Below, piece by piece: positions 11,122 to 56,694 of a stretch of 64,000 nt of DNA. The notes under the pieces were generated by a model, which was not told the DNA's origin, ran no database searches, and worked only from the letters and a program-made list of their open reading frames with translations. Location of the stretch: contig CAZGOG010000006.1 in NCBI GenBank assembly GCA_964527555.1, forward strand, positions 276-64,275, given 5' to 3'. How positions within the stretch are numbered: the stretch's first letter is position 1; each line of letters starts with the position of its first letter. Made by a program: the position numbers and the translations under genes. This DNA is from an uncultured Planctomycetia bacterium. Its GTDB lineage: Bacteria > Omnitrophota > Gorgyraeia > Tantalellales > Tantalellaceae.

Positions 11122-11526
11122 TTATTCCTCTTTAACCAGAGACTTTATTGTTATTGATTGGAGCTTTTTGACAAGATCTTTCTCTATATTGTCCAGTTTT
11201 TTCTTAAGGTAACAGGTCCTCACCCTTGGGCAGGTCCTGCCTTTAAAAAGGTGTTCATTCAGCGTAAAACGCCCCTGGAATATCTCGATAATATTAACAA
11301 TGTTTATCTTCCCGGGATCGACAACCAGGGAAAAACCGCCGCTTCTGCCCTTATATGACTTAAGCAGGCCCTTTTTATTCAAAACTTGAAGTATTTTCCT
11401 CAAAAAAGGTCTCGGCATATCGAGTTCTTCCGAGAGACTGGAGACAGTAAACATCCCGTCCCTGGAGGAGGCTATACAGGTCAGGGCTCTTACGGCATAA
11501 TCGGTATCCCTGGTAAGCAGCTTCAT
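11122..11526 (-). CDS. Rrf2-family transcriptional regulator
   Basis: The N-terminal wHTH reads MKLLTRDTDYAVRAL, typical of Rrf2/IscR. There is a C-terminal CxxxxxC pair plus E/H, so it may ligate a cluster. Confidence 0.85.
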   Translation of the reverse strand: MKLLTRDTDYAVRALTCIASSRDGMFTVSSLSEELDMPRPFLRKILQVLNKKGLLKSYKGRSGGFSLVVDPGKINIVNIIEIFQGRFTLNEHLFKGRTCPRVRTCYLKKKLDNIEKDLVKKLQSITIKSLVKEE

Positions 11527-11564
11527 TTGTATATCCTCCTTAAATCAAGATTATGTGAAAATTT

Positions 11565-40377: not shown

Positions 40378-40396
40378 TCGCCTCCGTAGCGTTTAA

Positions 40397-41413: not shown

Positions 41414-41414
41414 A

Positions 41415-41654
41415 CTATTTCCCGCCGGTATCTTCCCTTATTGTGCGTTTCAGTTCGTCAAGCGCCTTGAGCGTCTCTTGAGCTTCTTTTTTAGCGACTT
41501 TTCCTATAGCAAAACCGGCATGTACGAGGACATAGTCACCCTTTTTAACGCCGCTAAGAATCCCAAGCGATATTTCTTTTTTCGCGCCGCCAAAGTCTAC
41601 CACGGCGACATCTTTCTTTATATTTTTTACCTCAGCAGGAACCGCTAAACACAT
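41415..41654 (-). CDS. hypC: Hydrogenase maturation protein HypC
   Basis: Starts MCLAVP with Cys2, at 79 aa. Its stop overlaps the hypD start. Confidence 0.85.
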   Translation of the reverse strand: MCLAVPAEVKNIKKDVAVVDFGGAKKEISLGILSGVKKGDYVLVHAGFAIGKVAKKEAQETLKALDELKRTIREDTGGK

Positions 41655-41661
41655 AATATCC

Positions 41662-42732
41662 TTAGTTTAAATCCGCATTTAACGCCATGTAATACTGTCC
41701 AAGCGCTACATTGAGGTCATTTACAGGCACCTTATTATTTGTAAAGACTTTAAAGCGCAGTGCAACCAGCTCCTTGATGCATCTTTCCCTTAAGAATCCG
41801 TTCTGGAAGACTCCGCCGCTTAAAACTGTATTTTTAATACCGCTCTCTTTAGAGATTTTCTTAACAGTTTCAATGATTATCTTTATCATAGAATTATGAA
41901 ATTTAGTGGCGATAGTTTCTTTGCTTTTTTCTTTTTTCTTGTCCTCTAGCAGAGCGAGAAATATCTTTTTAGGATCTACAACTATTAGTCCCTTTTCATC
42001 TGCTAGATCAAAAGGGTAACTGCCCTTAACTTTCTTGCTGCATAAAGACTCAAGTTTTATGGGGCCTTCCGCTTCGTACGAGGCGTATTCGCATATTCCG
42101 AGAAGTGCCGCAGCAGCATCAAAAAGTCTTCCGGCACTTGACGATAAAGGCGAATTTAACCCCTTCTCCAGCATCTTTAAAACTAGAAACTTTTCTTCCT
42201 TAGGCGCCTCTTTTATTGCAGAAAGCCCGCTTTTTCCCAGTATGCTCAAGACCATGCGCCATGGCTCCAGAACCGCTTTATCACCGCCGGGAAGCATCTG
42301 ATACTTTAGATGCGCTACTCTTTTAAAATGTTTACCCCTAACCGTAAAAAACTCTCCGCCCCATATATTCCCGTCCGTCCCGTATCCGGTCCCGTCAAAG
42401 GAAACACCGATAACCGGCTCTTTCAGCCCGCGTTCATATATCACGCTTGCTATATGCGCGTGATGATGCTGGAAAGCCAGAAGAGTACTCTTCGGAAGTT
42501 TTAAAGATATTTCTTTCGCCAGAGACGATGAAAAATAACCCGGATGCATGTCGCAGGCTATTAACTTCGGCATGACTTTTTTAAGGGCTTTTTGCACTTC
42601 TTTCCTGACTAACGCATAATTTTCTGCATTGCTTAAATCCTGTATATCCGGTCCGAACAAGAGACTTCTTCCCCCGGAGAGAAGAAACCTGTTTTTCGTG
42701 TCAGATCCGAGGGCAAGAACTGTTTTTTTCAT
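41662..42732 (-). CDS. HypF C-terminal (Kae1/carbamoyltransferase-like) domain only
   Basis: ACDMHPGYFSS, HHHAHIASV and LSGGVFQN match the HypF C-terminal half. At 356 aa it has no acylphosphatase, zinc-finger or YrdC-like domains. Confidence 0.7.
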   Translation of the reverse strand: MKKTVLALGSDTKNRFLLSGGRSLLFGPDIQDLSNAENYALVRKEVQKALKKVMPKLIACDMHPGYFSSSLAKEISLKLPKSTLLAFQHHHAHIASVIYERGLKEPVIGVSFDGTGYGTDGNIWGGEFFTVRGKHFKRVAHLKYQMLPGGDKAVLEPWRMVLSILGKSGLSAIKEAPKEEKFLVLKMLEKGLNSPLSSSAGRLFDAAAALLGICEYASYEAEGPIKLESLCSKKVKGSYPFDLADEKGLIVVDPKKIFLALLEDKKKEKSKETIATKFHNSMIKIIIETVKKISKESGIKNTVLSGGVFQNGFLRERCIKELVALRFKVFTNNKVPVNDLNVALGQYYMALNADLN

Positions 42733-42743
42733 ATTGTTTTCTC

Positions 42744-42986
42744 TTACTCCACATCAAACGAAAGAACCTGGACGATCGTACCCGGAAACATCGTTATCTC
42801 AAGCGAAGCATCCTCCAGCATGGTGCCCTTCGCTAAAACTTTAAAGGTTTCCCGGAATGAATCTTCCCTGACGCAGGTAAGGTTCCCCACCTTGAGTTTA
42901 ACTTTCGTCACCGTGCTTGCCCCTTCTTCTCTGGCATGTTTTTCTATTCCTTCGATTACCGGCTTTATTAAATGCGTTTCATGCAT
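42744..42986 (-). CDS. HypA-like nickel-binding domain protein lacking the zinc-finger module
   Basis: Starts MHETHL, carrying the MHE Ni-binding N-terminus. At 80 aa it has no CxxC pairs. It sits between the protease and the HypF-like gene. Confidence 0.5.
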   Translation of the reverse strand: MHETHLIKPVIEGIEKHAREEGASTVTKVKLKVGNLTCVREDSFRETFKVLAKGTMLEDASLEITMFPGTIVQVLSFDVE

Positions 42987-43464
42987 TATACGCCTCCTCT
43001 ATGAGTTGAGTCATCTCATCAAGCGTCTTTTTCACGTTAGGCGAGACTTCTTCGCCAAAATCGACATTCTCCGGCTGAACGGCCAGCATATAAATATCGG
43101 CGGCCAGCTCCTTCTCAAGGTATTCAATAAACATGACCGGTGAAAGGTCATGCGTGGTAAACCCGGATCTGACTATGTCTTTCTTCTTCAAAATATCGTA
43201 TTCGCCGCTAGCCATGCCCAGCTGTGCCGCATCAGCAATAAGAACCGTTCGTGGAGCCCTCTTGACGATCTTACCCAGATAGTTTTCTGGAGCCGTCCCG
43301 GCATCGATGCACACAGCGCCGATCCTATCCTTTATCCTTTCGATTAAAAGAGGTCCGAAAGCATCGTCGCCCCTTAGGACGTTACCCACCCCTACTATCA
43401 AGCACTCCTTTTTAAACACAGCCTGAAGAGTACGGTATATTTTTTGTTTTTTGTTTTTCATCAC
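42979..43464 (-). CDS. [NiFe]-hydrogenase maturation endopeptidase (HycI/HybD family)
   Basis: Has the LIVGVGNVLRGDDAFG motif at 161 aa. The large subunit it would process carries a C-terminal extension after DPCYCCTER. Confidence 0.85.
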   Translation of the reverse strand: MMKNKKQKIYRTLQAVFKKECLIVGVGNVLRGDDAFGPLLIERIKDRIGAVCIDAGTAPENYLGKIVKRAPRTVLIADAAQLGMASGEYDILKKKDIVRSGFTTHDLSPVMFIEYLEKELAADIYMLAVQPENVDFGEEVSPNVKKTLDEMTQLIEEAYNA

Positions 43465-43500: not shown

Positions 43501-44169
43501 TTAGCCTTCTTCGTTCTCTTTCGTAGTAAGAGTGGTTTCTCTCCTACAGCGCGCGCAAAGGATCTTCACCCTGTCGGAACGGCCGTAATCCTTCATCGCG
43601 GAGATAATATTATTATCTACAATACCAAGACTTTTAAGGCGGGCTAGGTATAAGGTGGGACTTGAATAGGTCAACTCCCCTATTTTCTCAGAGATCCATT
43701 TCAGGTGATCCTTGCAGGCGATCACATCGCCGCACACCTCACAGAGCTGAAGCTCCTTCTCAATCGTCTCCTGAGCTTCACCCCTGTCAAAGAAGGCAAG
43801 ATCCCAGTCATTGGAGAGTTTAATACCTTCATTATCAGCGATACAGGCGGCTTCACACTGGCCGCAGAATATGCAGGTATCTGTATAATGGATGAGCGTC
43901 CTTTTCGGCTTTTCAGAATCAGTCTCATCCTTGTAATCAAGTGCCTCCACGGGACAGACCTGCACGCATGCAAGGCATCCCACGCACTTTTCGTCATTAT
44001 ATTTGGGTTGTCCCCGAAAGTTCTTATGCGCGACGTGCGCTACTTTAGGGAATTTAGACGTATACGGCCCTTTTATAAGCGCTTTTATCGCTTCTATAAG
44101 CTCCCTTATTTTGGGTTTCGGTATCCTCATCCTATATCTCACCCTCTTTATCTTCAGCATACCTGTCAA
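43501..44169 (-). CDS. NuoI/MbhN-like 2x[4Fe-4S] subunit of the membrane-bound hydrogenase (the start may be the internal MRIP at about 44130)
   Basis: Has two CxxCxxCxxxCP motifs (CVGCLACVQVCP, CIFCGQCEAAC) plus an extra C-terminal Cys-containing extension. Confidence 0.7.
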   Translation of the reverse strand: MTGMLKIKRVRYRMRIPKPKIRELIEAIKALIKGPYTSKFPKVAHVAHKNFRGQPKYNDEKCVGCLACVQVCPVEALDYKDETDSEKPKRTLIHYTDTCIFCGQCEAACIADNEGIKLSNDWDLAFFDRGEAQETIEKELQLCEVCGDVIACKDHLKWISEKIGELTYSSPTLYLARLKSLGIVDNNIISAMKDYGRSDRVKILCARCRRETTLTTKENEEG

Positions 44170-44467
44170 TAACGCTTTTTTCCCAGAGCTTGACTCCCGC
44201 TCTATGCGCGCCTCTTGCCACTGCGTGCGCTGCTACCGGTGCCGTCAAAAGTATGAACACTATGCAAAGAAGAGATTTAAGACCGGCTGCCGTGAACCCC
44301 ACTACCAGGAACGTCCCGAAGAGGATACTGCAAGTACCCAGCGTAACGCTTTTTGTCGCAGCCTGGAGACGGTTATATACGTCCGGCAGCCTCACCAGCC
44401 CCAGACAGCCGAAAAGGTCAAACGCAAGACCAACAGCAATAAAGACTAACCCGATAATATTACTCAT
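44132..44467 (-). CDS. mrpG: Mrp antiporter subunit G (MnhG/MbhC-like)
   Basis: A small 3-TM protein whose N-terminus IIGLVFIAVGLAFDLFGCLGLVRLPDVYNRL is typical of MnhG. Confidence 0.8.
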   Translation of the reverse strand: MSNIIGLVFIAVGLAFDLFGCLGLVRLPDVYNRLQAATKSVTLGTCSILFGTFLVVGFTAAGLKSLLCIVFILLTAPVAAHAVARGAHRAGVKLWEKSVIDRYAEDKEGEI

Positions 44468-44837
44468 CGAAACCTTTTCCTTCTAAATATTTTGAAAGTG
44501 CAAGCGTCCCTATAAAACTTTGAAGCGCCCAGGCTATACCAATGTCTATATACCATGACCTGCCGGTCGAAATCGTCAAAACGGAACAAAAACCGATTAT
44601 CATGATACCGAAAATATCTATCGCAACGATCCTATCGGCGCCTGTAGGCCCCCTGAATATGCGGTAAAGGCAAAGCGCACAGGCAAGAACCAGTATATAC
44701 ATGGCCCTGCCTAAAAACCCGACAAAGGGAAGATCAGGATAAAAAAGAAACGGAAACGGCCTTATTAGGATAAGGGTGATTATGGTAATGAGTGAAAGAG
44801 CCCCTAAGATCCATCTTAATATCTTCATGTTTTTCAA
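44460..44837 (-). CDS. mrpF: Mrp antiporter subunit F (MnhF/MbhB-like)
   Basis: 125 aa with 3 TM helices and the GPTGADRIVAIDI motif of MrpF. Confidence 0.8.
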   Translation of the reverse strand: MKNMKILRWILGALSLITIITLILIRPFPFLFYPDLPFVGFLGRAMYILVLACALCLYRIFRGPTGADRIVAIDIFGIMIIGFCSVLTISTGRSWYIDIGIAWALQSFIGTLALSKYLEGKGFDE

Positions 44838-44844
44838 TTATCCC

Positions 44845-45342
44845 TTATTCAAAGATTTTAGCTAAAATATCCTCAAACCTCTCCACAATCACTTTTGTTG
44901 CGGAAGAGACGTCTTTCTCCGTTACATTGATCCAGTGTATATAGAGAACGCCGCCCTCCCTGTCGATATCAACGCTCATGGTCCCCGGTGTAAGGGTTAT
45001 GGAATTAGCCAGAAAGGTGAGCGCCGTATCCGACTTAAGTTTAGTCTTAACCTTGACGATTCCCGGGTTTATCGGAAGCTTTGGATGCGTTACGCGATAC
45101 GCAACATCGATATTCGCTTTCAGACACTCCCATAAAAACCTCGGCACATAATAAGCTATAAAATACCAGTAACGGTGCGGGTGTTTAAGTATCTGGGGTC
45201 TGGTTATAAAAAGATCGCCCGTCGCAGCGGCGACAAAAGCTACTATAAAAACCCCGACTAAAAGATGCTGCCAGTCCGGTGGCCACGTCAGCATGCACCA
45301 TATAACAAAACCACAAACAAATAAGACTAATTTCTGTTTCAT
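44845..45342 (-). CDS. mrpE: Mrp antiporter subunit E (MnhE/MbhA-like)
   Basis: An N-terminal 2-TM region is followed by a soluble domain at 165 aa. It sits in the MrpD-E-F-G order. Confidence 0.75.
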   Translation of the reverse strand: MKQKLVLFVCGFVIWCMLTWPPDWQHLLVGVFIVAFVAAATGDLFITRPQILKHPHRYWYFIAYYVPRFLWECLKANIDVAYRVTHPKLPINPGIVKVKTKLKSDTALTFLANSITLTPGTMSVDIDREGGVLYIHWINVTEKDVSSATKVIVERFEDILAKIFE

Positions 45343-46848
45343 TTATCCGATCCCTTTGAAAACAATAGCGGCATATTTAGTTCCCTCTAAAAGGGCGTCT
45401 GCCGCCTGTGAAAGAAAATCCGTCTTTACCGCGCCCACCAGGAGAAGCCCTCCCAGAACACATATAAGCGCTAAGGCGCTCATGGCGAGTTTCATGAAGA
45501 CGGGCACCTCTTTCACCTGGTCCCATTTCTTTTTTAAGCGGTCGAAAAAGGCATATTTCATGACTTTCATGAAAGATGCAAGAGTCAATACGCTCGCTAT
45601 GACCGCCCATAAAGCGTAGCCGTAGCGCCCTGCCTGGACTGCCGCGATGATTATAATAAGCTTGCTCCAGAAGCCGTTAAAAGGCGGCACCCCCGCAATA
45701 GACATCGAAGCGATAAGACTCGTCGCTCCGGTAACGGGCATTTTCTCCGCCAGGCCGCCCATTTCCTTGAGATCACGCGTTCCCGTTGAATATTCGACAG
45801 CGCCGGAATTCAAGAAAAGCAGCGACTTAAACACGGAATGGTTAAAAAGATGAAATAACCCTCCCAGAATACCCAGCGGCGTAGCCAGGCCTATACCGAG
45901 CACTACATAACCTATCTGACTTATCGAATGATACGCAAGAAGCCTTTTAAAATCCCACTGCCCTATAGCCAGGAAAACCCCTATTACCATAGATAGCGTC
46001 CCGAGAACTAAAAGTATGGAGGAGATCTCGGCGCTCATACCGATGACATTGTACAAGATCCTGCAAAGCGCATATATACCGAGAGATTTTATGAGCACTC
46101 CCGAAAGCATCGCCGAAATAGGCGCCGGTGCGGAAGGATGGGCATCCGGGAGCCATGCATGGAACGGGACAAGCGCCGCTTTAAGCCCGAACCCCATGAC
46201 GAAGAGTACCGTTACCATCACCGTTATGTCGCCGCCGCCTTTTGCCGCAAGTACCTGCGCCATATCCGCCATATTAAGAGTGGAAGTATAACTGTACAGG
46301 AAAACAATACCCAGAAGAACGAAAAGCGAAGCCACGGTACTCATGATAGCGTACTTAAAAGCGGCTTCGAGCTCATGCTTCTCCGTCCCGAAAGCGACCA
46401 GCGCGTAACTTGCTACAGACGCTATCTCAAGAAAAACAAACAGGTTGAACATGTCGCCCGTTATAATGACCCCGTTCATCCCGGCAAGCATCAGGAGAAA
46501 CAATGAGTAAAACTTCCACTTGGAGGTATACTTTTCCATATAATTTATCGAAAAAACAGCTATTATAAAAGCGACCAGGTTCACCGTGACCAGCATGAAC
46601 GATGTCAGCCCGTCCAGCACCATGGCGATACCAATGGGAGGTTTCCAGGCACCGACGCTATATACCAAAGTACCGTTCTGGTTTACGACCCAGACCGATA
46701 CAAGCGAAAGCGCCATGAGAGCTAAAGTAAACACCCCTCCCGTCAGGTCGGGCGCCCACTTCACCTTTTTGCCTATAAGCGGCAGGAGGAACGCCCCGGC
46801 CAGAGGCAGTGCGACAAAAAGCGGTATTATATTAGATGCCGGCATCAT
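45343..46848 (-). CDS. mrpD: Mrp antiporter subunit D (NuoN/MbhH-like proton-pumping subunit)
   Basis: A 501-aa polytopic protein of the NuoL/M/N family (WLPDAHPSAPAPISAMLSG). Confidence 0.85.
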   Translation of the reverse strand: MMPASNIIPLFVALPLAGAFLLPLIGKKVKWAPDLTGGVFTLALMALSLVSVWVVNQNGTLVYSVGAWKPPIGIAMVLDGLTSFMLVTVNLVAFIIAVFSINYMEKYTSKWKFYSLFLLMLAGMNGVIITGDMFNLFVFLEIASVASYALVAFGTEKHELEAAFKYAIMSTVASLFVLLGIVFLYSYTSTLNMADMAQVLAAKGGGDITVMVTVLFVMGFGLKAALVPFHAWLPDAHPSAPAPISAMLSGVLIKSLGIYALCRILYNVIGMSAEISSILLVLGTLSMVIGVFLAIGQWDFKRLLAYHSISQIGYVVLGIGLATPLGILGGLFHLFNHSVFKSLLFLNSGAVEYSTGTRDLKEMGGLAEKMPVTGATSLIASMSIAGVPPFNGFWSKLIIIIAAVQAGRYGYALWAVIASVLTLASFMKVMKYAFFDRLKKKWDQVKEVPVFMKLAMSALALICVLGGLLLVGAVKTDFLSQAADALLEGTKYAAIVFKGIG

Positions 46849-47183
46849 CCCTTTAACTCCCTGATCTTTGTGATATCAAAAGTACCGTATTTTTCATAGA
46901 TCCTCATCGCGATACCCACAAGTAACGCGGTAGTCGCAAGTCCTATGACAATAGAGGTAAGCACGAGCGCCTGCGGCAGCGGGTCCACCATGTTCTTTAT
47001 TTCTTCGCCGCTTGAGAAGATAGGCGCGCGTCCATTCACTCTATAGCCCGCGAGTATGAAAAAGAGGTTAACCGCGTATTCCAGTATGATCACACCGATT
47101 ATCATCTTTATGACGTTGCGTTTTCTCACTATACAGTAAATACCGATAACGAAAAGTACCAGACACAGAAAATAAATGCTCAT
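46845..47183 (-). CDS. mrpC: Mrp antiporter subunit C (NuoK/MbhG-like)
   Basis: 112 aa with 3 TM helices and the conserved Glu-containing motif ILEYAVNLFFILAG. Confidence 0.85.
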   Translation of the reverse strand: MSIYFLCLVLFVIGIYCIVRKRNVIKMIIGVIILEYAVNLFFILAGYRVNGRAPIFSSGEEIKNMVDPLPQALVLTSIVIGLATTALLVGIAMRIYEKYGTFDITKIRELKG

Positions 47184-47632
47184 TTTTTCTTCCCTACATC
47201 AAGTTTTAATAGTATCAGTGCCACAAATATCGCGAAAATCCCGGCTCCCACTTTGAAACTTATGGCAATATTGCAAAGCGGGATAATACCCGCGCTGAAA
47301 AGCCTGAAAGGCTCACCTTTCGGTATAAAATTCAAAAAGAAATATCCTCCCGTAAAACCTAAAAGCGCTATAGAGAGAAATAGTATCGCGCCGGTACTTT
47401 CCCAGATGGAGGCTCGTGCCTCGGAAAGCTTCTTAAAGGCGACTTCTTTACCATATGCCAGTATTAGGTGTATAAAAGACAGCGCAATGATAACACCGCC
47501 GGCAAAACCGCCTCCCGGTGAAAGATGCCCGTGAGTGACGATATAAACCCCGTAAAGAAAGATGATCCCTACCGTTAGACGCGTGATCGTCTTGACTATA
47601 AGCGACATGCCTTTTTCATGTTCCCTACTCAT
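47180..47632 (-). CDS. mrpB: Mrp antiporter subunit B-like (MnhB domain, MbhF-like)
   Basis: The motif THGHLSPGGGFAGG is the MnhB signature. Confidence 0.8.
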   Translation of the reverse strand: MSREHEKGMSLIVKTITRLTVGIIFLYGVYIVTHGHLSPGGGFAGGVIIALSFIHLILAYGKEVAFKKLSEARASIWESTGAILFLSIALLGFTGGYFFLNFIPKGEPFRLFSAGIIPLCNIAISFKVGAGIFAIFVALILLKLDVGKKK

Positions 47633-48173
47633 CGCTTGCTTTTACCTCTTCTCCTGCTTTTTTTCTGCCAATGCGTCTTACAATCGCCAGAACCCCTATA
47701 ACAGCGGTAAACAGAATCGTCGCCTCACCCAGCGTATCGTAAGCCCTGAAGTCCAATATGACGGAAGAGACAAGGTTGACAGCTCCCGTTTTTGGAAGAC
47801 CTTCCGCCAGATATGTCTTAGCTACCCGCATCGCCGGATATCCGAACTCGGGCAGATCCTTAAGGCATTTCATGGCTACCGCCATAAACAAAACTATGAA
47901 ACATGCTGTAATAAGAGTGTTTAAAAACCACCTGCCGGTCGTTGAAAACGGAAGATCCTTCTTAAGCGTCGCTCTTATAAGGATTATGAGCGCCAGTATC
48001 TCTACCACAAGCTGCGTAATAGCCACGTCCGGCGCTTTGAGTATCAAGAACACTATGGAAAGCGCCAAACCGACCGCACCTACCGCTATAACAGCCGAAA
48101 GCAGGTCTTTTAGCTCGATCGCGACGATCGCGCCTATAATCATCAAAACAAGTAAAACGTAAAGCTCTACCAT
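47625..48173 (-). CDS. MrpA C-terminal-region-like membrane subunit (MbhD/E-like)
   Basis: 182 aa and hydrophobic. It sits between the NuoL-like MrpA core and MrpB, as in Mbh-type operons. Confidence 0.6.
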   Translation of the reverse strand: MVELYVLLVLMIIGAIVAIELKDLLSAVIAVGAVGLALSIVFLILKAPDVAITQLVVEILALIILIRATLKKDLPFSTTGRWFLNTLITACFIVLFMAVAMKCLKDLPEFGYPAMRVAKTYLAEGLPKTGAVNLVSSVILDFRAYDTLGEATILFTAVIGVLAIVRRIGRKKAGEEVKASDE

Positions 48174-48180
48174 ACTCTTC

Positions 48181-49821
48181 CTACTTCAAAAGAATATAAA
48201 AAAGGACACCCATCCCCAATAAACACCAGGCCAGATACGTAAGAAGCACGCCGTTATGGATATATCGCAGCACTTTATTGAATCCAAGCGTAATTTTAAC
48301 ACCGACCTCATATATATCAAATACTTTTCTCCCGGCAAGCCGGTAGATAAACTGCAAAACGCCTATGTCTCTGATGGTGTCGTAAAACTCGGTCCCGGAA
48401 GGTCGCATCTCCGGATGCTTTTCCAGAATCTCCCCGCCTACAAAAGGTTCAGCGGTCCTCGTCTTAAAAGCAGTGCCTGCCAGATAGATCAAAAATCCTA
48501 TTATAACGCCTACGATTATAAGAGCGGTAGCCAGTCCCGAACTCCATATACCGGTAAAGTTCGCTGCGCCCCCCAGGCTCGGGAATATGAACATCTTAAG
48601 CGGCACCTGGTAAGCAAAAATACCGAAAATAACACACAGTGCCGCTAATATCACCGAGGGGACCCACATGGTAGAACCTGCTTCGCCTTTAAGCTTTTTC
48701 CTGCCGGAGGCGGGCCTTCCCAGAAAAACGGCATGCACTAGTTTCATGAAACTTGCCAGTGTAAGGGCGCTGCCGAACATCGCCGCGACGATCCATACTA
48801 CCCAGAACTTATCCCCTGCTTTAGCCGAGTCTATTATCCCCTGGTAAATCATCCATTTGGAAGCAAATCCGTTAAAAGGCGGTACGCCTGAAATGGAAAA
48901 AGCGGCTATTAAAAACGCTACAAAAGTTATGGGCATAACCCTCGCAAAACCCCCGAGTTTTCCCAGGTCAACGGTACCCGCTTTCTTCTCGACCGATCCG
49001 CCCGAGAAAAACAGGCAGGATTTATAAATCGCATTATTGAGCATGTGAAACACACCGCCGGCAATACCGATGGGGTTACCCGTACCTATACCCAGAACCA
49101 TGTACCCGACCTGGCTTACGGCGTGATACCCCAAGAGCCTTTTCATGTCGTGCTGGATAAGCGCCATCATTACCGCGGCAACTATCGTGACGCTTCCCAT
49201 TACCATCAAAAAGGTGTTCATGCCCTTATCCATCTGGAAGACATCAAGAGAGATTCTCGCAAGAAAATATATGCCTAACAGTTTATCCAAAGAAGCCGGC
49301 AGAAACGCAGTCACAGAAGTCGGGGCGTCTTCCGCGACATCAGGTACCCATGTATGGAAAGGCATGGCGCCTGCTTTTGCGAACGCGCCCGAAGCCAGAC
49401 ATAGATACGCCAGGACTGCAGCTTTAGTATTAAGAGCAATACTCATCTTGTCTATCTCGAAAGTCCCCGTAAGATGCCAGATGATACCAAGCCCCAGGAG
49501 CATAAAAGCATCCGTACCGCCGATTATGATAAAAGTTTTTTTAGCCGTGTAGGCGGCACTATCTTTCCGGCTAAAACCGATCAAAAGATAAAGTAAAAGC
49601 GCCAAAAATCCCCAGAAAACTATAAAAAGCACCAGATTGTTGGAAAAGACCGCTCCTAAAGAAGCTAAAAACGTAAGGATGATATAGCTGTAGTAGCGCA
49701 GTAAACCTTTCCTTCCGCGCATAAAACCGATGGAGTAGAGAATCGTCAGAGCGGAGAACACGCTGACGAATATCGCTACAAAAATCGACAAATTATCTAA
49801 TCTAAAGAGTCCATCCGTCAC
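48181..49821 (-). CDS. mrpA: MrpA/NuoL-like antiporter core subunit
   Basis: A 546-aa polytopic protein of the NuoL family (WVPDVAEDAPTSVTAFL, HAVSQVGYM). Confidence 0.85.
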   Translation of the reverse strand: MTDGLFRLDNLSIFVAIFVSVFSALTILYSIGFMRGRKGLLRYYSYIILTFLASLGAVFSNNLVLFIVFWGFLALLLYLLIGFSRKDSAAYTAKKTFIIIGGTDAFMLLGLGIIWHLTGTFEIDKMSIALNTKAAVLAYLCLASGAFAKAGAMPFHTWVPDVAEDAPTSVTAFLPASLDKLLGIYFLARISLDVFQMDKGMNTFLMVMGSVTIVAAVMMALIQHDMKRLLGYHAVSQVGYMVLGIGTGNPIGIAGGVFHMLNNAIYKSCLFFSGGSVEKKAGTVDLGKLGGFARVMPITFVAFLIAAFSISGVPPFNGFASKWMIYQGIIDSAKAGDKFWVVWIVAAMFGSALTLASFMKLVHAVFLGRPASGRKKLKGEAGSTMWVPSVILAALCVIFGIFAYQVPLKMFIFPSLGGAANFTGIWSSGLATALIIVGVIIGFLIYLAGTAFKTRTAEPFVGGEILEKHPEMRPSGTEFYDTIRDIGVLQFIYRLAGRKVFDIYEVGVKITLGFNKVLRYIHNGVLLTYLAWCLLGMGVLFYILLK

Positions 49822-50430
49822 TTAGCTGCTCTCCTTTGATACCCTTGCGATGTTCGTGCAATGACGGGCTATGTTACCCGTGAAATCCAACATATCAAAA
49901 TACATGTTCGACGCTCGCGCCTGGCATATACCTTTAGTAAGGCGTTCAAGATGCGCACTTCTTGCCTTTTCAACCAGTTTCTTGATCACGTCTCCATTGG
50001 CCAGGATCTCGTCTAAAAGTCCCGGATTCCCGGTATTTAGAAATTTCACTAAGAGGTCCACTGACTTTTTCATCGTATTAAACACTTCTTTATATTGGGA
50101 TGAACCTTCTTCGCTGAACTGGAGCCTGTCTGAAATTTTGATCTCAATACGCTCAACCAGAGAACGAAACTCATCCCCCATACGTTCCAGGTTCTGGGCG
50201 ATCTGCCCCCAAACGACAAGTTTTTTCTTGGCGGCCTCATCGAGTTTTTTGGAAAGCGCCACGATATCGGCAATGATCTCCTCTTCGATAGCGTCCAGTT
50301 CTCGTTCTTTGCCGAGAACACCGTCAAGTATATGTATATCGTTTTTATCAAGACCGCTGTATGTGATATCTACCATCTCTTTAACGATCGCGGCCATCTC
50401 CCGGGCTGATTTTTTTATTTTGTCGTTCAT
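49822..50430 (-). CDS. PhoU-like/DUF47-type helical protein embedded in the hydrogenase operon
   Basis: It is all-helical, and MLDFTGNIARHCTNIARV plus LERMGDEFRSLVERIE resemble PhoU repeat motifs (D..GD...nIaE). It is translationally coupled on both sides. Confidence 0.45.
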   Translation of the reverse strand: MNDKIKKSAREMAAIVKEMVDITYSGLDKNDIHILDGVLGKERELDAIEEEIIADIVALSKKLDEAAKKKLVVWGQIAQNLERMGDEFRSLVERIEIKISDRLQFSEEGSSQYKEVFNTMKKSVDLLVKFLNTGNPGLLDEILANGDVIKKLVEKARSAHLERLTKGICQARASNMYFDMLDFTGNIARHCTNIARVSKESS

Positions 50431-51605
50431 CTTTTCCCCCGTCTGATCCTTTCGGTCTTCTCCTGTGAAAGCCTGATAAGCTCTTCACCGTTATAAAGCT
50501 TCTTTCCTTTAATATCCCGCACGGCCATCCTTTCCGTGCAACAATAACACGGGTCTATAGCTGCCAGGATAATCGTAGTATCGGCAATAGTCTCGCCTAT
50601 CACAGTAGACTTATAAGTCGGCAGATTCATAAAGGTCGGGGCCCTTACCTTGTGCCTCTCAGGGCTGTTAGTACCGTCGCTCCTCACATAATGAAACGTC
50701 TCGCCCCTGGGGGCCTCGATGTGGCCTATACCTTCTCCCGGGGGGATGCTTTTGATATTGGCGTCTATTTCCCCCGATGGAAGGTTTTTAAGGCAGTACT
50801 TCATTATCTTATGGGACTCGAACATCTCAAGCACTCTTACAACAACCTTATCAAAAACATCCCCGGTTTCGGTGACTATCATATCCCAGTCTAATCTGTC
50901 ATAAGCTCCATAGGGAGAATCTTTTCGAACGTCCCTGGCGACTCCGGAAGCACGTGAAGTGGGACCCAAAGCAGAATAGTCTATGGCTTCTTCCTTTGTA
51001 AGAATACCTACGCCTTTCGTCCGCGCGTGCAGTACCGGGTCATCCATAACGGCTTTCCTTAGCATCTCAAGCGTAGGGACGATAGAATCTATTTTCTTTA
51101 TAGACGCCTCAATATCCTCAGGGGCAAAATCCCTCCTTACCCCGCCCGGTTTAAACATCGCATAGTTATTTCTGTTGCCGGAAAGTATCTCCATGACGTC
51201 CAGGATCTCTTCCCGGAGTTTCCAGGCCCACATGTAAACGGTATTATAACCCAAGAAATGCCCCGCAAGACCAAGCCATAAAAGATGAGAGTGCAGCCTT
51301 TCCCCTTCAGCGATCACGGTCCTTATGAACTTGGCTCTTTCGGGCACTTCCATCGGGATGATATCCTCAACCGCCCTCGTATAAGCATAGGGATGGCTTG
51401 TCGAGCATATGCCGCAGATCCTTTCAATAACAAAAGTGGACTGATCAAACGTCTTCATCTCGGACAGTTTCTCTATACCCCTATGGTTATACCCGACCTG
51501 GACGTCGACATCTACTACTTTCTCACCTTCTACCGTAAGGGTGAAAAACTCGGGTTCCTCCTGCAGCGGGTGATACGGTCCTATTGGTACAATTGTTTTC
51601 GCCAT
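50427..51605 (-). CDS. Group 4 [NiFe]-hydrogenase large subunit (EchE/MbhL/HycE-like). Start placed at MAKTIVPIGPY.
   Basis: ERICGICSTSH is the N-terminal RxCGxCxxxH Ni-Fe ligand motif and DPCYCCTER the C-terminal DPCxxCxxR motif. A roughly 33-aa C-terminal extension is left for the endopeptidase. Confidence 0.9.
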   Translation of the reverse strand: MAKTIVPIGPYHPLQEEPEFFTLTVEGEKVVDVDVQVGYNHRGIEKLSEMKTFDQSTFVIERICGICSTSHPYAYTRAVEDIIPMEVPERAKFIRTVIAEGERLHSHLLWLGLAGHFLGYNTVYMWAWKLREEILDVMEILSGNRNNYAMFKPGGVRRDFAPEDIEASIKKIDSIVPTLEMLRKAVMDDPVLHARTKGVGILTKEEAIDYSALGPTSRASGVARDVRKDSPYGAYDRLDWDMIVTETGDVFDKVVVRVLEMFESHKIMKYCLKNLPSGEIDANIKSIPPGEGIGHIEAPRGETFHYVRSDGTNSPERHKVRAPTFMNLPTYKSTVIGETIADTTIILAAIDPCYCCTERMAVRDIKGKKLYNGEELIRLSQEKTERIRRGKR

Positions 51606-51609
51606 TTTT

Positions 51610-52104
51610 TTATTTTGGTTTTTTGTTTTTTTCGATGCCACGATCCCTGACAGCTTGCGGATCCCATTCTTCATAATCTGCCCTGAGCGGGTAAACCCCT
51701 TCGGGCCAGTCCTCCGGAAGGAGAAGCCTCCTGAGATCGGGGTGCCCCTTAAAATTAACGCCTAAAAGTTCATGTATCTCTCTTTCTATCCAGTCCGCGG
51801 CCTTGAAATGCGGCGCTAAAGAATCTATCTCAAGCTTGTCTTTTGCCAGCTTCACCCGTAGTGAAATCAATAGATTTATGTCCTCGACAGTGAAATGATA
51901 CAGGATCTCTATATAGTCCCGTGCGTCCCTTCCCGTAGCTATGTTAAAACGCGCTTTCTGGTCCTTGAAAATATAAGTGGCCACCTTGACCAAGGATTTC
52001 GGCTTGATCTCGATGTACACTCTTTTCCGGGTCTTATCGAAAATATCGATAATATCTGCCTTGAACTTCTTCGTGAGATCTTTTAATATTTCTTCTCGAT
52101 TCAT
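51610..52104 (-). CDS. NuoC/EchD-like hydrogenase subunit
   Basis: A 164-aa NuoC (30 kDa subunit)-like sequence (ERE..E.LG..F.GHPD.RRLL). Confidence 0.8.
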   Translation of the reverse strand: MNREEILKDLTKKFKADIIDIFDKTRKRVYIEIKPKSLVKVATYIFKDQKARFNIATGRDARDYIEILYHFTVEDINLLISLRVKLAKDKLEIDSLAPHFKAADWIEREIHELLGVNFKGHPDLRRLLLPEDWPEGVYPLRADYEEWDPQAVRDRGIEKNKKPK

Positions 52105-52542
52105 CTATTTAGTTTCCCGGCTTTTTGCCTTGACCTTTTCTATTAGTTTCACCACACCCGCTATTATAGCTTCCGGTTTCGGCGGGCAACCCGGAATGTA
52201 AGCATCAACGGGGATTATTTTATCAAGCGGCACGGGACAGTTGTAGCTGTGTATGAACATGCCGCGCGACAGTGAACACTCACCTATGGCGACTACGAGA
52301 CACGGTTTCGGGGCCTGCTCATAAAGCCTCTTAAGTCTTTTCGCCGATTTCCTGTTACAGGACCCCGTAATAAGAAGAACGTCGGCGTGTTTAATGCTCG
52401 GGGCCAGAAGCATCCCGAACCTCTCTATGTCAAACCTGGGCGTAAGACAATCGAGCACTTCGATATCGCAGTTATTACAGCTTCCCGTGGAAAGGTGGAA
52501 CACCCACGGAGATTTTAGCAACGCTTTTAGTTTCATGCTCAT
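52105..52542 (-). CDS. Group 4 [NiFe]-hydrogenase small subunit (NuoB/EchC/MbhJ-like)
   Basis: Has four Cys for the proximal [4Fe-4S] (CNNCDIEVLDC ... GCPPKPE) at 145 aa. Confidence 0.9.
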   Translation of the reverse strand: MSMKLKALLKSPWVFHLSTGSCNNCDIEVLDCLTPRFDIERFGMLLAPSIKHADVLLITGSCNRKSAKRLKRLYEQAPKPCLVVAIGECSLSRGMFIHSYNCPVPLDKIIPVDAYIPGCPPKPEAIIAGVVKLIEKVKAKSRETK

Positions 52543-52544
52543 GT

Positions 52545-53486
52545 TTATCTTCCTATTAGTGCCAATACCACCGCGACTATCGCAATCACCGTCATCGGTC
52601 CCCAGAAAAACTTAACGGCCTGATCTATCCTTACCCTGGGATTCGTGTTTCTTATGACCGTTATAAGCGCCACAAGTCCTATATATTTGAGGATGCCGTA
52701 TAGAAAGTGCACTCCATCAAGTCTTAACCCGCCCATGTAAAGTATCATCAAAAAGAAAGGCAGCGTGAAAAGAAGCATGTTCTTCATGAGGCGGAAAACT
52801 GCCAAAGGCGCGCCGGAATATTCTATTAAAACTCCTCCTCCAAGCTCGGTCTCGGCTTCGGGTATATCAAACGGCACAAAAGCAAGTTTTGCCTGCACGC
52901 TCATGATCGCAACGACGAGCGCCAAAGTGCCGGATAAACTTCCCGCCACCACACCGTTTTCTGCCTGAGAAGTAAGTATGTCCCCCAGTCTGATCGCATA
53001 ATCGGATTTAATAACGGGAACCAGTACCGCAAGTACAAATGGCAGCTCATAAGCAAGTATCATCTTCATCTCACGGGAAGCGCCTATACTCGCCAGCGGG
53101 TTTGCCGAGGCAAAACCACCTATTATGATACTTATCGAGGGGATGGTAAGCAGGTATATCGCAACGATTATATCCCCCATAAAACCTTTACCCACCCATA
53201 TATCATTGACCCACAAGAGGGCTGAGACCACCATTACGCTCGATATGCCCAGAACAGGCGCCAGTAAAAACGTCTGTTTTGAGGCCCCCGCGGGGACTAA
53301 AGTCTCTTTACCCAACAGCTTGATTATATCGATAAGCGGCTGAAGAAGAGGCGGCCCCACGCGATACTGCACGCGTGCAGTGACTTTCCTGTCAATCCAG
53401 CTTGCCAGAAGCCCTATTACGGCTGTCAGTAAAAATCCAAAAAATAGCAGATAAAACACGTTTCTCATGCTTTTTCCCTGTCCCAA
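52545..53486 (-). CDS. NuoH/EchB/MbhM-like membrane subunit
   Basis: A 313-aa polytopic protein of the NuoH family (RVQYRVGPPLLQPL, ETELGGGVLIEYSG). Confidence 0.85.
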   Translation of the reverse strand: MGQGKSMRNVFYLLFFGFLLTAVIGLLASWIDRKVTARVQYRVGPPLLQPLIDIIKLLGKETLVPAGASKQTFLLAPVLGISSVMVVSALLWVNDIWVGKGFMGDIIVAIYLLTIPSISIIIGGFASANPLASIGASREMKMILAYELPFVLAVLVPVIKSDYAIRLGDILTSQAENGVVAGSLSGTLALVVAIMSVQAKLAFVPFDIPEAETELGGGVLIEYSGAPLAVFRLMKNMLLFTLPFFLMILYMGGLRLDGVHFLYGILKYIGLVALITVIRNTNPRVRIDQAVKFFWGPMTVIAIVAVVLALIGR

Positions 53487-54028
53487 TGCGTGGAATGAAC
53501 TATTATGTTGTCACCCACGAAAAAGGTGTTTTCATCGAGCGCGATATCCCCGCTTTTTAAGCTTAACGCCCCGTAAGGGCACGTCTTTATACATAACGGT
53601 TCATCTTTTTTGTCTCTTCTATCCAGGCAGAAATCACAGTTATGGACCAGATACGGTACTAGTTCAGGATAAATGGTCCCGTAAGGGCATGCATGAGAAC
53701 ATGACCCGCAGCTTATGCATCTCATGTTATGCCGCATAAGAAAATTATCCTTGTCTTCCTGCTGCTCGAGCGCCTCTACCGGACAGGAAGCGACGCAATG
53801 CGGATCTTCGCATCTCCTGCATACAAGAGCGTAAGTGGCAAGTTCCGCTACCGAAAGGATCCCGTTATTTCCGGTCTGGCGATGATAAAGATAACTGCAT
53901 TTAATTACGCATTCTTTACATTCGCCTGACGCGCAGACATCGAGGTCGATGAAGAGCCTCTTGTCTTTGCCTTTTTTGGGCTCGGTGTTTACGTTACCCT
54001 GATGCACCTGTTCCGCGCTAGTTGCCAT
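53465..54028 (-). CDS. HycB-like polyferredoxin (multiple [4Fe-4S])
   Basis: Has four Cys clusters (CKECVIKC, CRRCEDPHCVASCP, CISCGSCSHACP, CDFCL...CIKTCP) at 187 aa. Confidence 0.75.
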   Translation of the reverse strand: MATSAEQVHQGNVNTEPKKGKDKRLFIDLDVCASGECKECVIKCSYLYHRQTGNNGILSVAELATYALVCRRCEDPHCVASCPVEALEQQEDKDNFLMRHNMRCISCGSCSHACPYGTIYPELVPYLVHNCDFCLDRRDKKDEPLCIKTCPYGALSLKSGDIALDENTFFVGDNIIVHSTHWDREKA

Positions 54029-54043
54029 GCTTATAAACCTCTT

Positions 54044-54880
54044 TTAATCCCAGATCCCGTGAAAGTCCTTTATCTTATCATATGTAAAGACCGGGCCGTC
54101 TTTACACGCATAATAAGTACCTAGCCTGCAGTGCCCGCATTTCCCTATACCGCAGGACATGTTCTTCTCCATGGAAAGATAGATGTTCCCTTCTTTAAAT
54201 CCCAGTTCCAAGAGCTTCATGGTCGCAAACTTCATCATTATAGGAGGACCGCAGACAACCGCGATAGCCGTAGGATAGTGCATGTCGATATCGTCCAGGA
54301 TCGTCGTGACAACTCCGACGTTACCTTTCCATTTATCGTCACCGGCATCGACCGTAAGTTTAAGGTTCAAGTCGTCCCTTTCGGCCCATTCCTCTGTCTG
54401 ATCTTTATATACCAGTTCTTTCGGGGTTTTACACCCGCCTCTAAAATAGAGTTTTTTAAATTTGCCGCTTCTATCAAAAAACTCGTACATAAGGCTTCTT
54501 AAAGGCGCGAAACCGCACCCCCCGCCTACCACTAATATCTCTTTGCCTTCGAAGTCATCCACCGGATACCCAGTTCCAAAAGGACCCCTTACCCCGATTA
54601 TATCGCCTTTTTCGAGTTCGTGGATCTTATCAGTGACTTTTCCCACCTTCATGACGCTCACTTCCATTATATCCCTGACCGAAGGTTTCGATGACGGGGT
54701 AAACGGCGCTTCCCCCACTCCGGGAATGGTTATCTCCACGAACTGACCCGTCTTAAAGGTTATCTCCTCTTCCGGCTTGAACCTTATGGTCTTTATAGTC
54801 GGGGTCTCCGTTATAACGTCAAGGACTTCCGCCTTTATGGGCCTGTATGGATTCTCGCATGGAGACTTACTTTTTGCCAT
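54044..54880 (-). CDS. AsrB/HydG-family FAD- and NAD(P)H-binding subunit with a C-terminal [2Fe-2S]
   Basis: Has the PyrK-like flavin-reductase fold (RFKPEE..F..GQF, VVGGGCGFAPLRS) and a C-terminal CGIGKCGHCRLG cluster motif, at 278 aa. Confidence 0.8.
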   Translation of the reverse strand: MAKSKSPCENPYRPIKAEVLDVITETPTIKTIRFKPEEEITFKTGQFVEITIPGVGEAPFTPSSKPSVRDIMEVSVMKVGKVTDKIHELEKGDIIGVRGPFGTGYPVDDFEGKEILVVGGGCGFAPLRSLMYEFFDRSGKFKKLYFRGGCKTPKELVYKDQTEEWAERDDLNLKLTVDAGDDKWKGNVGVVTTILDDIDMHYPTAIAVVCGPPIMMKFATMKLLELGFKEGNIYLSMEKNMSCGIGKCGHCRLGTYYACKDGPVFTYDKIKDFHGIWD

Positions 54881-55910
54881 CAGTATCTACCAATCTTCTT
54901 AAAACCTTTCTGATATCTATCTTCGCAGGGCATGCCGAGATGCAGCGTCCGCATCCCGTGCAAGCGTATACTTCAGAGACTTTCGGAAAAAAATCGAATT
55001 TCTTCACAAACCTGTTACGAAGGCGCTGGTAGAGTTTACCCCTGGGATTATGTCCCCCGGCGACCTTAGCGTATTCTTTCAGCATACATGAATCCCAGAT
55101 GCGCAGACGCGCCATCTTATCTTCGCTTTTCTGGTCATAGAGAAGAAAGCAGTGACATGTCGGGCATATTATGGTGCACGCTCCGCATTCGACACAGGTC
55201 TCCGCTTCGCTCGTCCATATATCGGATTCAAAGTTCCTTTCGATGATATTTTCAAATACGTCCTGACGTGGAACGTTGTTTTCCTTGATATTATTTTCGA
55301 CCTGTTTTGTGACGCTTTCCCTTACCTTGTCCCTTGCTTTAATAAGCCCGCTTGCTGCCTCCTCGAAAAAGGAAGAGTTTTTATCTATAATCTTCTTCCC
55401 CTTATCCGATCCGGCCTCAACAAGATACCCGCCTTCCGTCTCGGAAAGATTAATATCAAAATTCTCTTTCGGGTAAGGATCCACCCCCACCGCAAGGCAG
55501 AAACATGTATCGATCGCCAGGGTACAATCAGACGAGATGATGAGGTTCTCTTCCCTCAGCTTGATATAAATAGGGTCCTTGTAATCATGGTCCAGAAAGA
55601 CATGGTCCTGGATTTTAAAGCCTTTAAGGTCACATGCTTTAACGCCTACTATTGCAAAAGGTTTGTCGGCAGCGTGAGGAGCTCCTTTTTTGAAATCTTC
55701 GGCGACGACCTCTCTTGCGCGTGAGAAAAAAGCCTTAAGCGGCTCGAAGGGACGCACCTCACCTATAACGATTTTCTCGGCCTCTTTCGTATACTCTTTA
55801 TAGAAACGTTTCTCGCCCTTTTTGACGGGTACGAAAACACGGAAGTCTTCCTTTAAAGAATCCAGGAAAAGCGGAAATTTTTCACTTGATATGTGTTTTA
55901 TATCACTCAT
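54867..55910 (-). CDS. AsrA/HydB-family iron-sulfur subunit
   Basis: Has CVECGACTIICPTCHCF and CTGCGRCISACP ferredoxin-type motifs. Its 347 aa match the AsrA/sulfhydrogenase-beta size class. Confidence 0.75.
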   Translation of the reverse strand: MSDIKHISSEKFPLFLDSLKEDFRVFVPVKKGEKRFYKEYTKEAEKIVIGEVRPFEPLKAFFSRAREVVAEDFKKGAPHAADKPFAIVGVKACDLKGFKIQDHVFLDHDYKDPIYIKLREENLIISSDCTLAIDTCFCLAVGVDPYPKENFDINLSETEGGYLVEAGSDKGKKIIDKNSSFFEEAASGLIKARDKVRESVTKQVENNIKENNVPRQDVFENIIERNFESDIWTSEAETCVECGACTIICPTCHCFLLYDQKSEDKMARLRIWDSCMLKEYAKVAGGHNPRGKLYQRLRNRFVKKFDFFPKVSEVYACTGCGRCISACPAKIDIRKVLRRLVDTDGKK

Positions 55911-55916
55911 GATGAC

Positions 55917-56546
55917 TTATTTCTTATTCACCAGGAAATACGACAGCGTTTCCAGCTCCCTTGAAAGATCAACGTCTTTTACTTTTACCTCTTCCGGCAC
56001 GTTTAAAGCGACCGGCGCGAAGTTCAGGATACATTTAACGCCTGACGAAACCAGTTTATCCGCTACGTCCTGCGCGTTCTCGGCATCAACGGTTATAACC
56101 CCTATGGATATCTTGTTAGCCGCTACCCGCTTGGCAAGTTCACTTAAGGGCTCAACCGTTATCCCTCCGAGGCGCTTGCCGATCTTACTGGCGGATGCAT
56201 CGAACGCTGCCACTATCTTTAAACCGTGTTTTTCAAATCCGGAATATGAAAGCAGCGCTGAACCCAGATGCCCCACTCCCAGCACGGCAACGTTCCAGGT
56301 CTTGTCTTTACCGAGTATTTTCTCTAAAGCTTTTTTCAGTTCGCCCGTATTATAACCCGAACCGCTTACCCCGAACTGCCCGAAATAACCGAGATCTTTT
56401 CTTACCTGCGCATCACTTAGGTTCACTTTCTCGCCCAGCTCCGCTGAAGAGATCGTTTTTATGTCCAGATCAACCAGCTCGGTGATTTTCCTCAAATATA
56501 TGAAAAGCCGTGTTATAGTGCCCTCTGGCACTTTTTTTCCGTTCAT
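55917..56546 (-). CDS. rex: Redox-sensing transcriptional repressor Rex
   Basis: An N-terminal wHTH (ITRLFIYLRKI) is followed by a Rossmann fold with VAVLGVGHLGSALL, at 209 aa. A Rex operator lies in its own 5' UTR. Confidence 0.9.
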   Translation of the reverse strand: MNGKKVPEGTITRLFIYLRKITELVDLDIKTISSAELGEKVNLSDAQVRKDLGYFGQFGVSGSGYNTGELKKALEKILGKDKTWNVAVLGVGHLGSALLSYSGFEKHGLKIVAAFDASASKIGKRLGGITVEPLSELAKRVAANKISIGVITVDAENAQDVADKLVSSGVKCILNFAPVALNVPEEVKVKDVDLSRELETLSYFLVNKK

Positions 56547-56567
56547 GGATTTTGGCTGTAATAGATT

Positions 56568-56585
56568 TTGTGATAATATTCACAA
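56568..56585 (-). promoter_or_regulatory. Rex operator (TTGTGA-taatat-TCACAA)
   Basis: Read directly. It is a perfect match to the canonical Rex box TTGTGAAnnnnnnTTCACAA core, lying 22 nt upstream of the rex ATG and downstream of the predicted -10. Confidence 0.7.
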
Positions 56586-56590
56586 ACTTC

Positions 56591-56634
56591 GTTCTTAAAT
56601 TCACAAATATAATACTTTTATACCGGGATGTCAA
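56591..56634 (-). promoter_or_regulatory. Candidate sigma70 promoter of the rex-hydrogenase operon (TTGACA-N17-TATATT), with a Rex half-site (TTGTGAA) overlapping the -10/TSS
   Basis: Read directly on the minus strand. The -35 is at plus 56629-56634 and the -10 at 56606-56611. TTGTGAATTTAAGAAC lies at 56591-56606. Confidence 0.45.
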
Positions 56635-56694
56635 GAGGAAAATAAAAAGAATTTTTAGAAGATTGACTGCGGGAAAGAGCTATAGATGCTTCTT

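Follow-up and report, generated by a model that had tools for sequence, protein, structure and literature searches.

The window analysed here is a 64-kb stretch of DNA from an uncultured Omnitrophota bacterium known solely from metagenomes. On its minus strand lies a tight cluster of 24 genes, which begins with the gene for the redox-sensing repressor Rex (rex, 55917..56546; 209 aa) and runs to hypE. All 23 gaps within the cluster are 36 bp or shorter, and many of the genes overlap. The amino-acid permease gene upstream of rex is separated from it by a gap of 148 bp. An earlier, sequence-only reading of this DNA had named the gene that follows a palindromic box as rex, and both the domain pair and the family cut-offs agreed with that name. 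The protein contains the winged-helix domain Put_DNA-bind_N (Pfam PF06971, 2.5e-15, residues 5-52) and the Rossmann NAD(H) domain CoA_binding (Pfam PF02629, 3.3e-21, residues 81-179), and it exceeded the NCBIfam cut-offs of NF003995 (258.2 bits vs. 126), NF003993 (254.7 bits vs. 217), and NF003992 (233.2 bits vs. 226). It aligned from end to end with the solved Rex structures 3wg9, 5zz5, and 3ikt (E ~1e-45), and its segments "aqvrkdlgyfgqfgvsgsgyn" (the RKDL..FG wing) and "vlgvghlg" (GxGxxG) align with segments of 3wg9 and 5zz5. As judged from these searches, the ORF at 55917-56546 encodes a genuine repressor of the Rex family. The closest orthologues of the gene were all found in metagenome-assembled genomes (MAGs) and single amplified genomes (SAGs) of Candidatus Omnitrophota, and an identical Rex protein is present on JGI metagenome contigs.

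The choice of the rex start codon was backed by alignments spanning the whole protein, both with orthologous Rex proteins and with the solved Rex structures. No Shine-Dalgarno-like tetramer was found in the 20 nt before the ATG (56547-56567 region); such a tetramer was present at 38 of the 66 ORFs of the window. In several orthologues the box nearest to rex stops 0-6 nt from the start codon, which leaves scant or no room for a Shine-Dalgarno sequence.

The genes downstream of rex, all on the minus strand, encode a hydrogenase complex and its maturation proteins. An oxidoreductase module (53465..55910), identified by domain searches, consists of a HydB/ShyB/AsrA-like Fe-S protein (54867-55910), a HydG/AsrB-like FAD/NAD(P)-binding protein (54044-54880), and a ferredoxin-like 2x[4Fe-4S] protein (53465-54028). 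The core of an Mbh-type [NiFe] hydrogenase (50427..53486), assigned by Pfam, comprises NuoH-, NuoB- (small subunit), NuoC-, and NuoD-like (large subunit) proteins; the translated large subunit carries both Ni-Fe CxxC motifs, RICGICSTSH and DPCYCCTER. The Mrp/Mbh membrane module (two MrpD-like genes, MbhD/E, MnhB, NuoK-like, MnhE, MrpF, and MnhG) lies within 43501..50430, as does a NuoI-like ferredoxin subunit (43501-44169). A gene for a PhoU-domain protein of 202 aa (49822-50430) stands after that of the [NiFe] large subunit and before the first MrpD-like one, with overlaps of 4 and 0 bp to the flanking genes; such a protein is an unusual passenger in a hydrogenase operon. The tight cluster ends with the maturation genes hycI, a short hypA, the C-terminal half of hypF, hypC, hypD, and hypE (39385..43464). 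The existence of a hydrogenase/Mrp operon after rex, as claimed in the earlier reading, was thus borne out by the oxidoreductase, Mbh, and Mrp genes and by the gaps of at most 36 bp, but its extent had been drawn too narrowly, with hycI, hypA, the truncated hypF (hypF'), hypC, hypD, and hypE taking it to 39385.

Two of the maturation genes are short. HypF (41662-42732, minus strand) is represented by its C-terminal Kae1-like half only (356 aa; PF17788 and PF22521), and no acylphosphatase, zinc-finger, or YrdC part of HypF was seen in the cluster. HypA (42744-42986, minus strand) is 80 aa long and covers positions 1-70 of a 112-position profile. A short HypF after rex was seen in many Omnitrophota; the loci with this short form are L020, L034, L036-L038, L040-L042, L045-L048, L050, L055, and the rex-less L083.

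From the tight packing of the cluster we infer that all 24 genes are co-transcribed. The frequency of intrinsic terminators inside the cluster was not beyond chance (26 vs. 18.6 ± 4.6 expected). When the cluster was scanned for promoters, none better than the promoter of rex was found; internal promoters may nevertheless occur within these 17 kb. The HydB/HydG-like module points to an Mbh-Mrp complex linked to NAD(P)H, and not to one driven purely by ferredoxin. This module probably couples NAD(P)H to the production of H2, a role of which we infer both the direction and the cofactor.

The rex promoter is immediately preceded, on the same strand, by the amino-acid permease gene, the product of which is fused to a PTS-EIIA-like domain (56695-58545), and by a gene for a PAS-containing histidine kinase (58573-60390). 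The adjacency of permease and rex is kept in several Omnitrophota (L001, L003, L005, L012, and L052). Between the stop codon of the permease gene (56695) and the promoter no convincing intrinsic terminator was found, so some read-through into rex is possible.

The promoter scan placed a -35 hexamer TTGACA at 56629..56634 and a -10 hexamer TATATT at 56606..56611 (both minus strand), with a spacer of 17 nt. This TTGACA-17-TATATT promoter matches 11 of the 12 sigma-70 positions and scored highest among the promoter-like sites of the 17.9 kb between 38900 and 56800. From promoter geometry, the transcription start site (TSS) is predicted approximately 7 nt past the -10 hexamer, in the region 56597..56601 of the minus strand (near 56599).

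Between this promoter and the start codon of rex lies the proximal Rex operator, a predicted element with the sequence TTGTGATAATATTCACAA (56568..56585). The earlier reading had reported a perfect palindrome at this place, between the promoter and the start codon; its coordinates and letters proved correct, and the promoter scan confirmed its position. It is the sole perfect match to TTGTGA-N6-TCACAA in the whole 64-kb window (12 of 12 core positions), and no perfect match appeared in any of 100 dinucleotide-preserving shuffles. When up to two mismatches were allowed, two further sites were found elsewhere in the window, each with two mismatches and at a frequency expected by chance. Because the relevant genes are all on the minus strand, the element must be read as its reverse complement. 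In that reading the proximal box is TTGTGAATATTATCACAA, which agrees with 13 of the 14 positions of the 7-mer halves in TTGTGAA-N4-TTCACAA, and the order along the strand is TATAT-TTGTGAATTTAAGAACGA-AGT-TTGTGAATATTATCACAA, followed after 21 nt by the ATG at 56546. If the TSS is near 56599, the proximal box occupies approximately +15 to +32.

The second element, TTGTGAATTTAAGAACGA (56589..56606, minus strand), is a predicted distal Rex operator. This box shares its first T with the end of the -10 hexamer, and relative to the predicted TSS it extends from approximately -7 to +11. The sequence-only reading had described it as a perfect left half overlapping the -10. Both of these features hold, whereas the further claim that only a left half is present does not. 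The right half, GAACGA, is degenerate and brings the box to 9 of the 12 positions of the idealised core (three mismatches), but it retains the invariant positions A and C, and the same GAACGA variant was found in at least eight orthologues (L003, L005, L013, L034, L036, L038, L048, and L052). A position weight matrix (PWM) was built from 52 orthologous pairs only, with the window itself left out. In the 64-kb window this matrix ranked the proximal box first (27.6 bits) and the distal box second (19.5 bits), followed by a match of 11.4 bits; the maximum in 20 shuffled windows scored with the same matrix was 16.5 bits. In addition, a 38-nt composite pattern derived from the orthologues matched 56568-56605 (minus strand) with no mismatch, where none was expected by chance. 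The offset from the distal to the proximal box is exactly 21 bp. On the PWM ranking, the composite match, and the conserved GAACGA, the supposed half-site turns out to be a full, though degenerate, second operator and the weaker of the two in a conserved pair. Read in this way, 56567-56607 is two 20-bp Rex palindromes 1 bp apart; their centres are consequently 21 bp apart, that is, two helical turns, on the same face of the DNA.

Beyond the two operator boxes, the PWM scan of the window gave no match above the shuffle maximum of 16.5 bits. Weak matches 26 bp apart (11552-11597) were seen just upstream of a gene for an Rrf2-family regulator (11122-11526), which is followed by a class II fructose-bisphosphate aldolase gene (10061-11032). 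The matches at 11578 and 11552 (11.4 and 11.3 bits) were dropped as candidate regulon members, since they scored below the shuffle maximum; they are probably chance matches or the operator of the Rrf2 protein itself. The survey of the regulon covered the 64-kb window and loci of 2-14 kb.

A scan of one genome per species yielded 80 rex loci. Approximately 55 of these were Omnitrophota orthologues (62-77% identity). The other 25 were distant rex homologues (43-52% identity), mostly from Planctomycetota, and included single loci from Elusimicrobia and Vicinamibacteraceae and one low-identity MAG labelled as Omnitrophota. Of 54 Omnitrophota loci, 49 had at least one site with two or fewer mismatches before rex. 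Sites were approximately 200-times more frequent near rex than elsewhere: the 150 bp upstream of rex contained 72 sites in 8.1 kb (8.9 per kb), and the remaining 362 kb of the same loci contained 15 (0.041 per kb). Nearly all of these 15 lay inside ORFs, had two mismatches, and resembled chance matches. The exception was L037, in which a pair at -259/-238 is a real operator with a longer leader. Two sites were present in the 150 bp before the rex start in 22 loci, and in every one of these the sites were exactly 21 bp apart, start to start. No box was found in the 150 bp upstream of any of the 25 distant homologues; the motif and its layout are thus specific to the clade and not general to rex genes.

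When the orthologous loci were aligned on the best 21-bp-phased pair of each, the common pattern was cTTGACa, 17 nt, TATAyT, TTGTGAAnnnnnGnACAA, A(G/C)T, yTGTGAAnnnnnTyACAA. The G-T-G-A of the left half and the A-C of the right half were invariant in 52 of 52 orthologues. All 53 anchored rex loci had a -35 TTGAC[A/T] at the equivalent place, and in 52 of them the promoter matched at least 9 of the 12 positions. The most frequent layout, which includes that of the window, had a -10 hexamer that reaches to within 0-1 nt of the point where the distal box begins, so that the two abut or overlap (38/52). Less often the -10 ended 6-11 nt upstream and the distal box started near +1 (9/52), or the distal box lay within the spacer with its right half serving as the -10 (5/52). 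In every layout the operator pair was located on the core promoter or on the early transcribed region. In a subgroup of loci (L004, L008, L010, L011, and L032; also L014 and L033), a -35 TTGACT has moved directly upstream of the distal box, which fills the spacer, and its right half TACAAA is the -10; the promoter of this subgroup has been rewired around an unchanged double operator.

The genes that follow rex differed among loci. The order rex-hydB-hydG-fer4-nuoH-nuoB was found in approximately 35 Omnitrophota loci. Elsewhere the same operator and rex were followed by hypF'-hypC/D/E (e.g., in Ca. Tantalella and Ca. Aadella, from which group 3b hydrogenases have been reported), by hypA-hypB and 3b-like genes, by NuoE/NuoF-like genes (a probable [FeFe] A3 hydrogenase), or, in one locus, by a gene for a FocA-like transporter. 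A search of metagenome contigs with the composite pattern returned 41 matches, of which 28 were directly upstream of rex orthologues and on the same strand. In L083 and L115 the promoter-operator cassette stood directly before hypF' in a locus without rex; the gene order of L083 (hypF'-hypC-hypD-hypE-hypA-hydB-hydG-hydrogenase small subunit) is that of a 3b-like operon. The operator is thus also located at a hydrogenase operon on which Rex would act in trans, as expected of the binding site of a regulator and contrary to what a feature that merely accompanies the rex coding sequence would show. In L084, L095, and L116 the composite pattern matched direct repeats of TTTGTGAA that precede an XRE-type HTH gene. 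These contigs are unrelated and have no rex nearby, and the repeats look like the operator of another regulator.

The palindrome could instead belong to a regulator of the CRP/FNR family, in which case rex and the hydrogenase genes would answer to that regulator and would not be autoregulated. Sites of the CRP type have a TGTGA-N6-TCACA core (the Escherichia coli CRP consensus) with A/T-rich flanks of the AAATGTGAT type, and the box does contain this core. However, what is conserved is a 7-mer of the Rex type, TTGTGAA: TGTGA was preceded by T or C in 52 of 52 cases, never by A, and was followed by A in 51/52 and 48/52. Moreover, the site tracks rex across the differing downstream genes and in the metagenome matches, and its flanks agree with the published Rex consensus TTGTGAANNNNTTCACAA (PMC6391272). 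On the evidence of the site itself, control by a CRP/FNR-type regulator is considered very unlikely.

Rex might also bind here as an activator or a dual regulator of the hydrogenase operon. Activation has been proposed for the MBH operon of Caldicellulosiruptor bescii, in which the Rex site is located 45 bp upstream of the TSS (PMC8579813), so Rex does not act in the same direction everywhere. In the window, by contrast, both boxes are on or downstream of the -10, as they are in the orthologues, and this geometry was read as repression in the same study (PMC8579813). We consider an activating or dual role highly improbable.

An element acting at the RNA level was judged more doubtful still. 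A hairpin in the 5′-UTR would then affect the stability, attenuation, or translation of the rex mRNA; if the TSS prediction holds, the transcript includes the proximal box, which can fold into a hairpin of 7 bp. This hairpin is weak (-5.8 kcal/mol, z = -0.82), and 38 of 200 shuffles folded equally well, for which reason the RNA reading was dropped. No Rfam family was found in 56300-56900 at E values up to 1. The pattern of conservation is also that of a DNA motif (invariant G-T-G-A...A-C with a variable spacer) and not that of compensatory pairing, and conservation is just as high in the distal box, which lies across the predicted TSS. Finally, a chance palindrome without function, for which the A+T-rich intergenic context is all that speaks, is effectively refuted by conservation, that is, by the absence of perfect matches in the shuffles together with the enrichment near rex and the fixed 21-bp phase in more than 50 species.

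The earlier interpretation of the box as a Rex operator passed all computational tests (true Rex gene, unique box, promoter, operon, and conservation). The site is probably a composite operator for the Rex protein encoded next to it, on which Rex dimers would occlude the -10, the TSS, and the early transcribed region until released by NADH, so that the hydrogenase operon would be autoregulated. At a low NADH/NAD+ ratio, one Rex dimer on the distal box would cover the -10 and the TSS, and a second dimer on the proximal box would cover approximately +15 to +32; together they would block the binding of RNA polymerase to the TTGACA-17-TATATT promoter or its escape from it. When NADH rises, it would bind the Rossmann domain, Rex would leave the DNA, and the operon would be transcribed. 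Release of Rex by NADH is established behaviour of the family (PMC6391272). Transcription of the operon would yield more Rex, which would provide negative feedback and rapid re-repression, and it would yield the oxidoreductase, the Mbh-Mrp hydrogenase, and the maturation proteins, which would act as a valve that vents excess reductant as H2. Rex binding, cooperativity between dimers, the NADH response, and the position of the TSS are predictions.

A wider proposal, which we put forward tentatively and consider possible rather than probable, is that the Rex of Omnitrophota is a dedicated hydrogenase switch and not a broad global regulator, that it binds the fixed-phase 41-bp double operator as a dimer of dimers, and that the cassette is kept before whichever hydrogenase a lineage has. 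If this were true, cooperative dimers on the same face would give a sharp NADH threshold. The cassette, usually with rex first, would be kept before a 4g Mbh-Mrp-oxidoreductase, a 3b hydrogenase with hyp genes, or an [FeFe] A3 hydrogenase. With a 4g enzyme, induction would depend on NAD(P)H, which the HydB/HydG-like module would probably also use as its substrate.

Gene regulation has hardly been studied in the Omnitrophota, a widespread phylum of mostly ultra-small, uncultured bacteria. The conserved promoter-operator cassette offers a testable link, by which the NADH/NAD+ ratio would control the H2-evolving enzymes of the phylum, and it helps to predict the timing of H2 release to syntrophic partners or hosts. 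The double operator, with its fixed 21-bp spacing, is also a clean natural system in which to study whether Rex dimers cooperate.

The searchable literature contained no description that we could find of tandem, cooperative, or fixed-phase paired Rex operators, and the word "Rex" does not occur in the Omnitrophota genome papers PMC8542988 and PMC10066038. Within that literature, three points appear to be new: any Rex regulation in Omnitrophota, the position of rex at the head of the hydrogenase operon, and a phased double operator fused to the promoter in more than 50 species and before several classes of hydrogenase. Because repression by Rex of hydrogenases and of its own gene is established in Firmicutes, the advance is incremental. 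The predicted switch is of an ordinary redox kind, a solid annotation and not a surprise, with a layout that is conserved across the phylum.

The protein resembles the Rex proteins of solved structure (T-Rex/DNA, 3ikt; Thermoanaerobacter ethanolicus, 3wg9 and related entries; Thermotoga maritima, 5zz5) in its winged-helix motif ...Q[VI]RKDL..FG..G..GxGYN and its Rossmann GxGxxG, both of which are conserved. For the regulatory arrangement, a comparison is offered by the Rex operators (ROP) of Streptomyces coelicolor and the autoregulated rex-hemACD operon, reportedly described by Brekasis and Paget in 2003. The two systems share a TGTGAA...TTCACA inverted repeat on the promoter, rex as the first gene, and autorepression relieved by NADH, which is a prediction for the locus described here. 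They differ in that the locus described here has two full operators at a fixed spacing of 21 bp, controls hydrogenase rather than haem biosynthesis genes, and belongs to Omnitrophota and not to Actinobacteria.

The operator consensus (TTGTGAANNNNTTCACAA; PMC6391272) and the location of sites on or after the promoter are shared with the Rex regulon of C. bescii and C. saccharolyticus (PMC6391272, PMC8579813). EMSA work on C. bescii showed that its Rex represses operons for both [NiFe] and [FeFe] hydrogenases as well as rex itself (PMC6391272). Rex sites that overlap or follow the promoter were read as repressive in the regulon of this species, and comparative genomics likewise placed rex itself and the operons of group-4 [NiFe] and [FeFe] hydrogenases under the control of Rex (PMC8579813). 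In C. bescii, however, rex is monocistronic and unlinked to the hydrogenases, and its sites are single palindromes of 18-20 bp, that of MBH being upstream of the TSS; in the window, rex heads the hydrogenase operon, with a phased pair of operators on the core promoter.

With respect to the enzyme, the cluster is similar to the "Mbh-Mrp-oxidoreductase type" of group 4 [NiFe] hydrogenases reported from Elusimicrobia, Saganbacteria, and Thermococcales (bioRxiv 10.1101/765248), as it combines an Mbh core and an Mrp module with a HydB/HydG-like oxidoreductase. The function of the oxidoreductase was called unknown in that study of Elusimicrobia, which also noted rex genes near hydrogenase genes (bioRxiv 10.1101/765248). 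Published accounts of Omnitrophota include group 4g Mrp-linked hydrogenases (PMC8542988, PMC10066038); to those descriptions the present analysis adds a predicted regulatory link, consisting of Rex and its operator.
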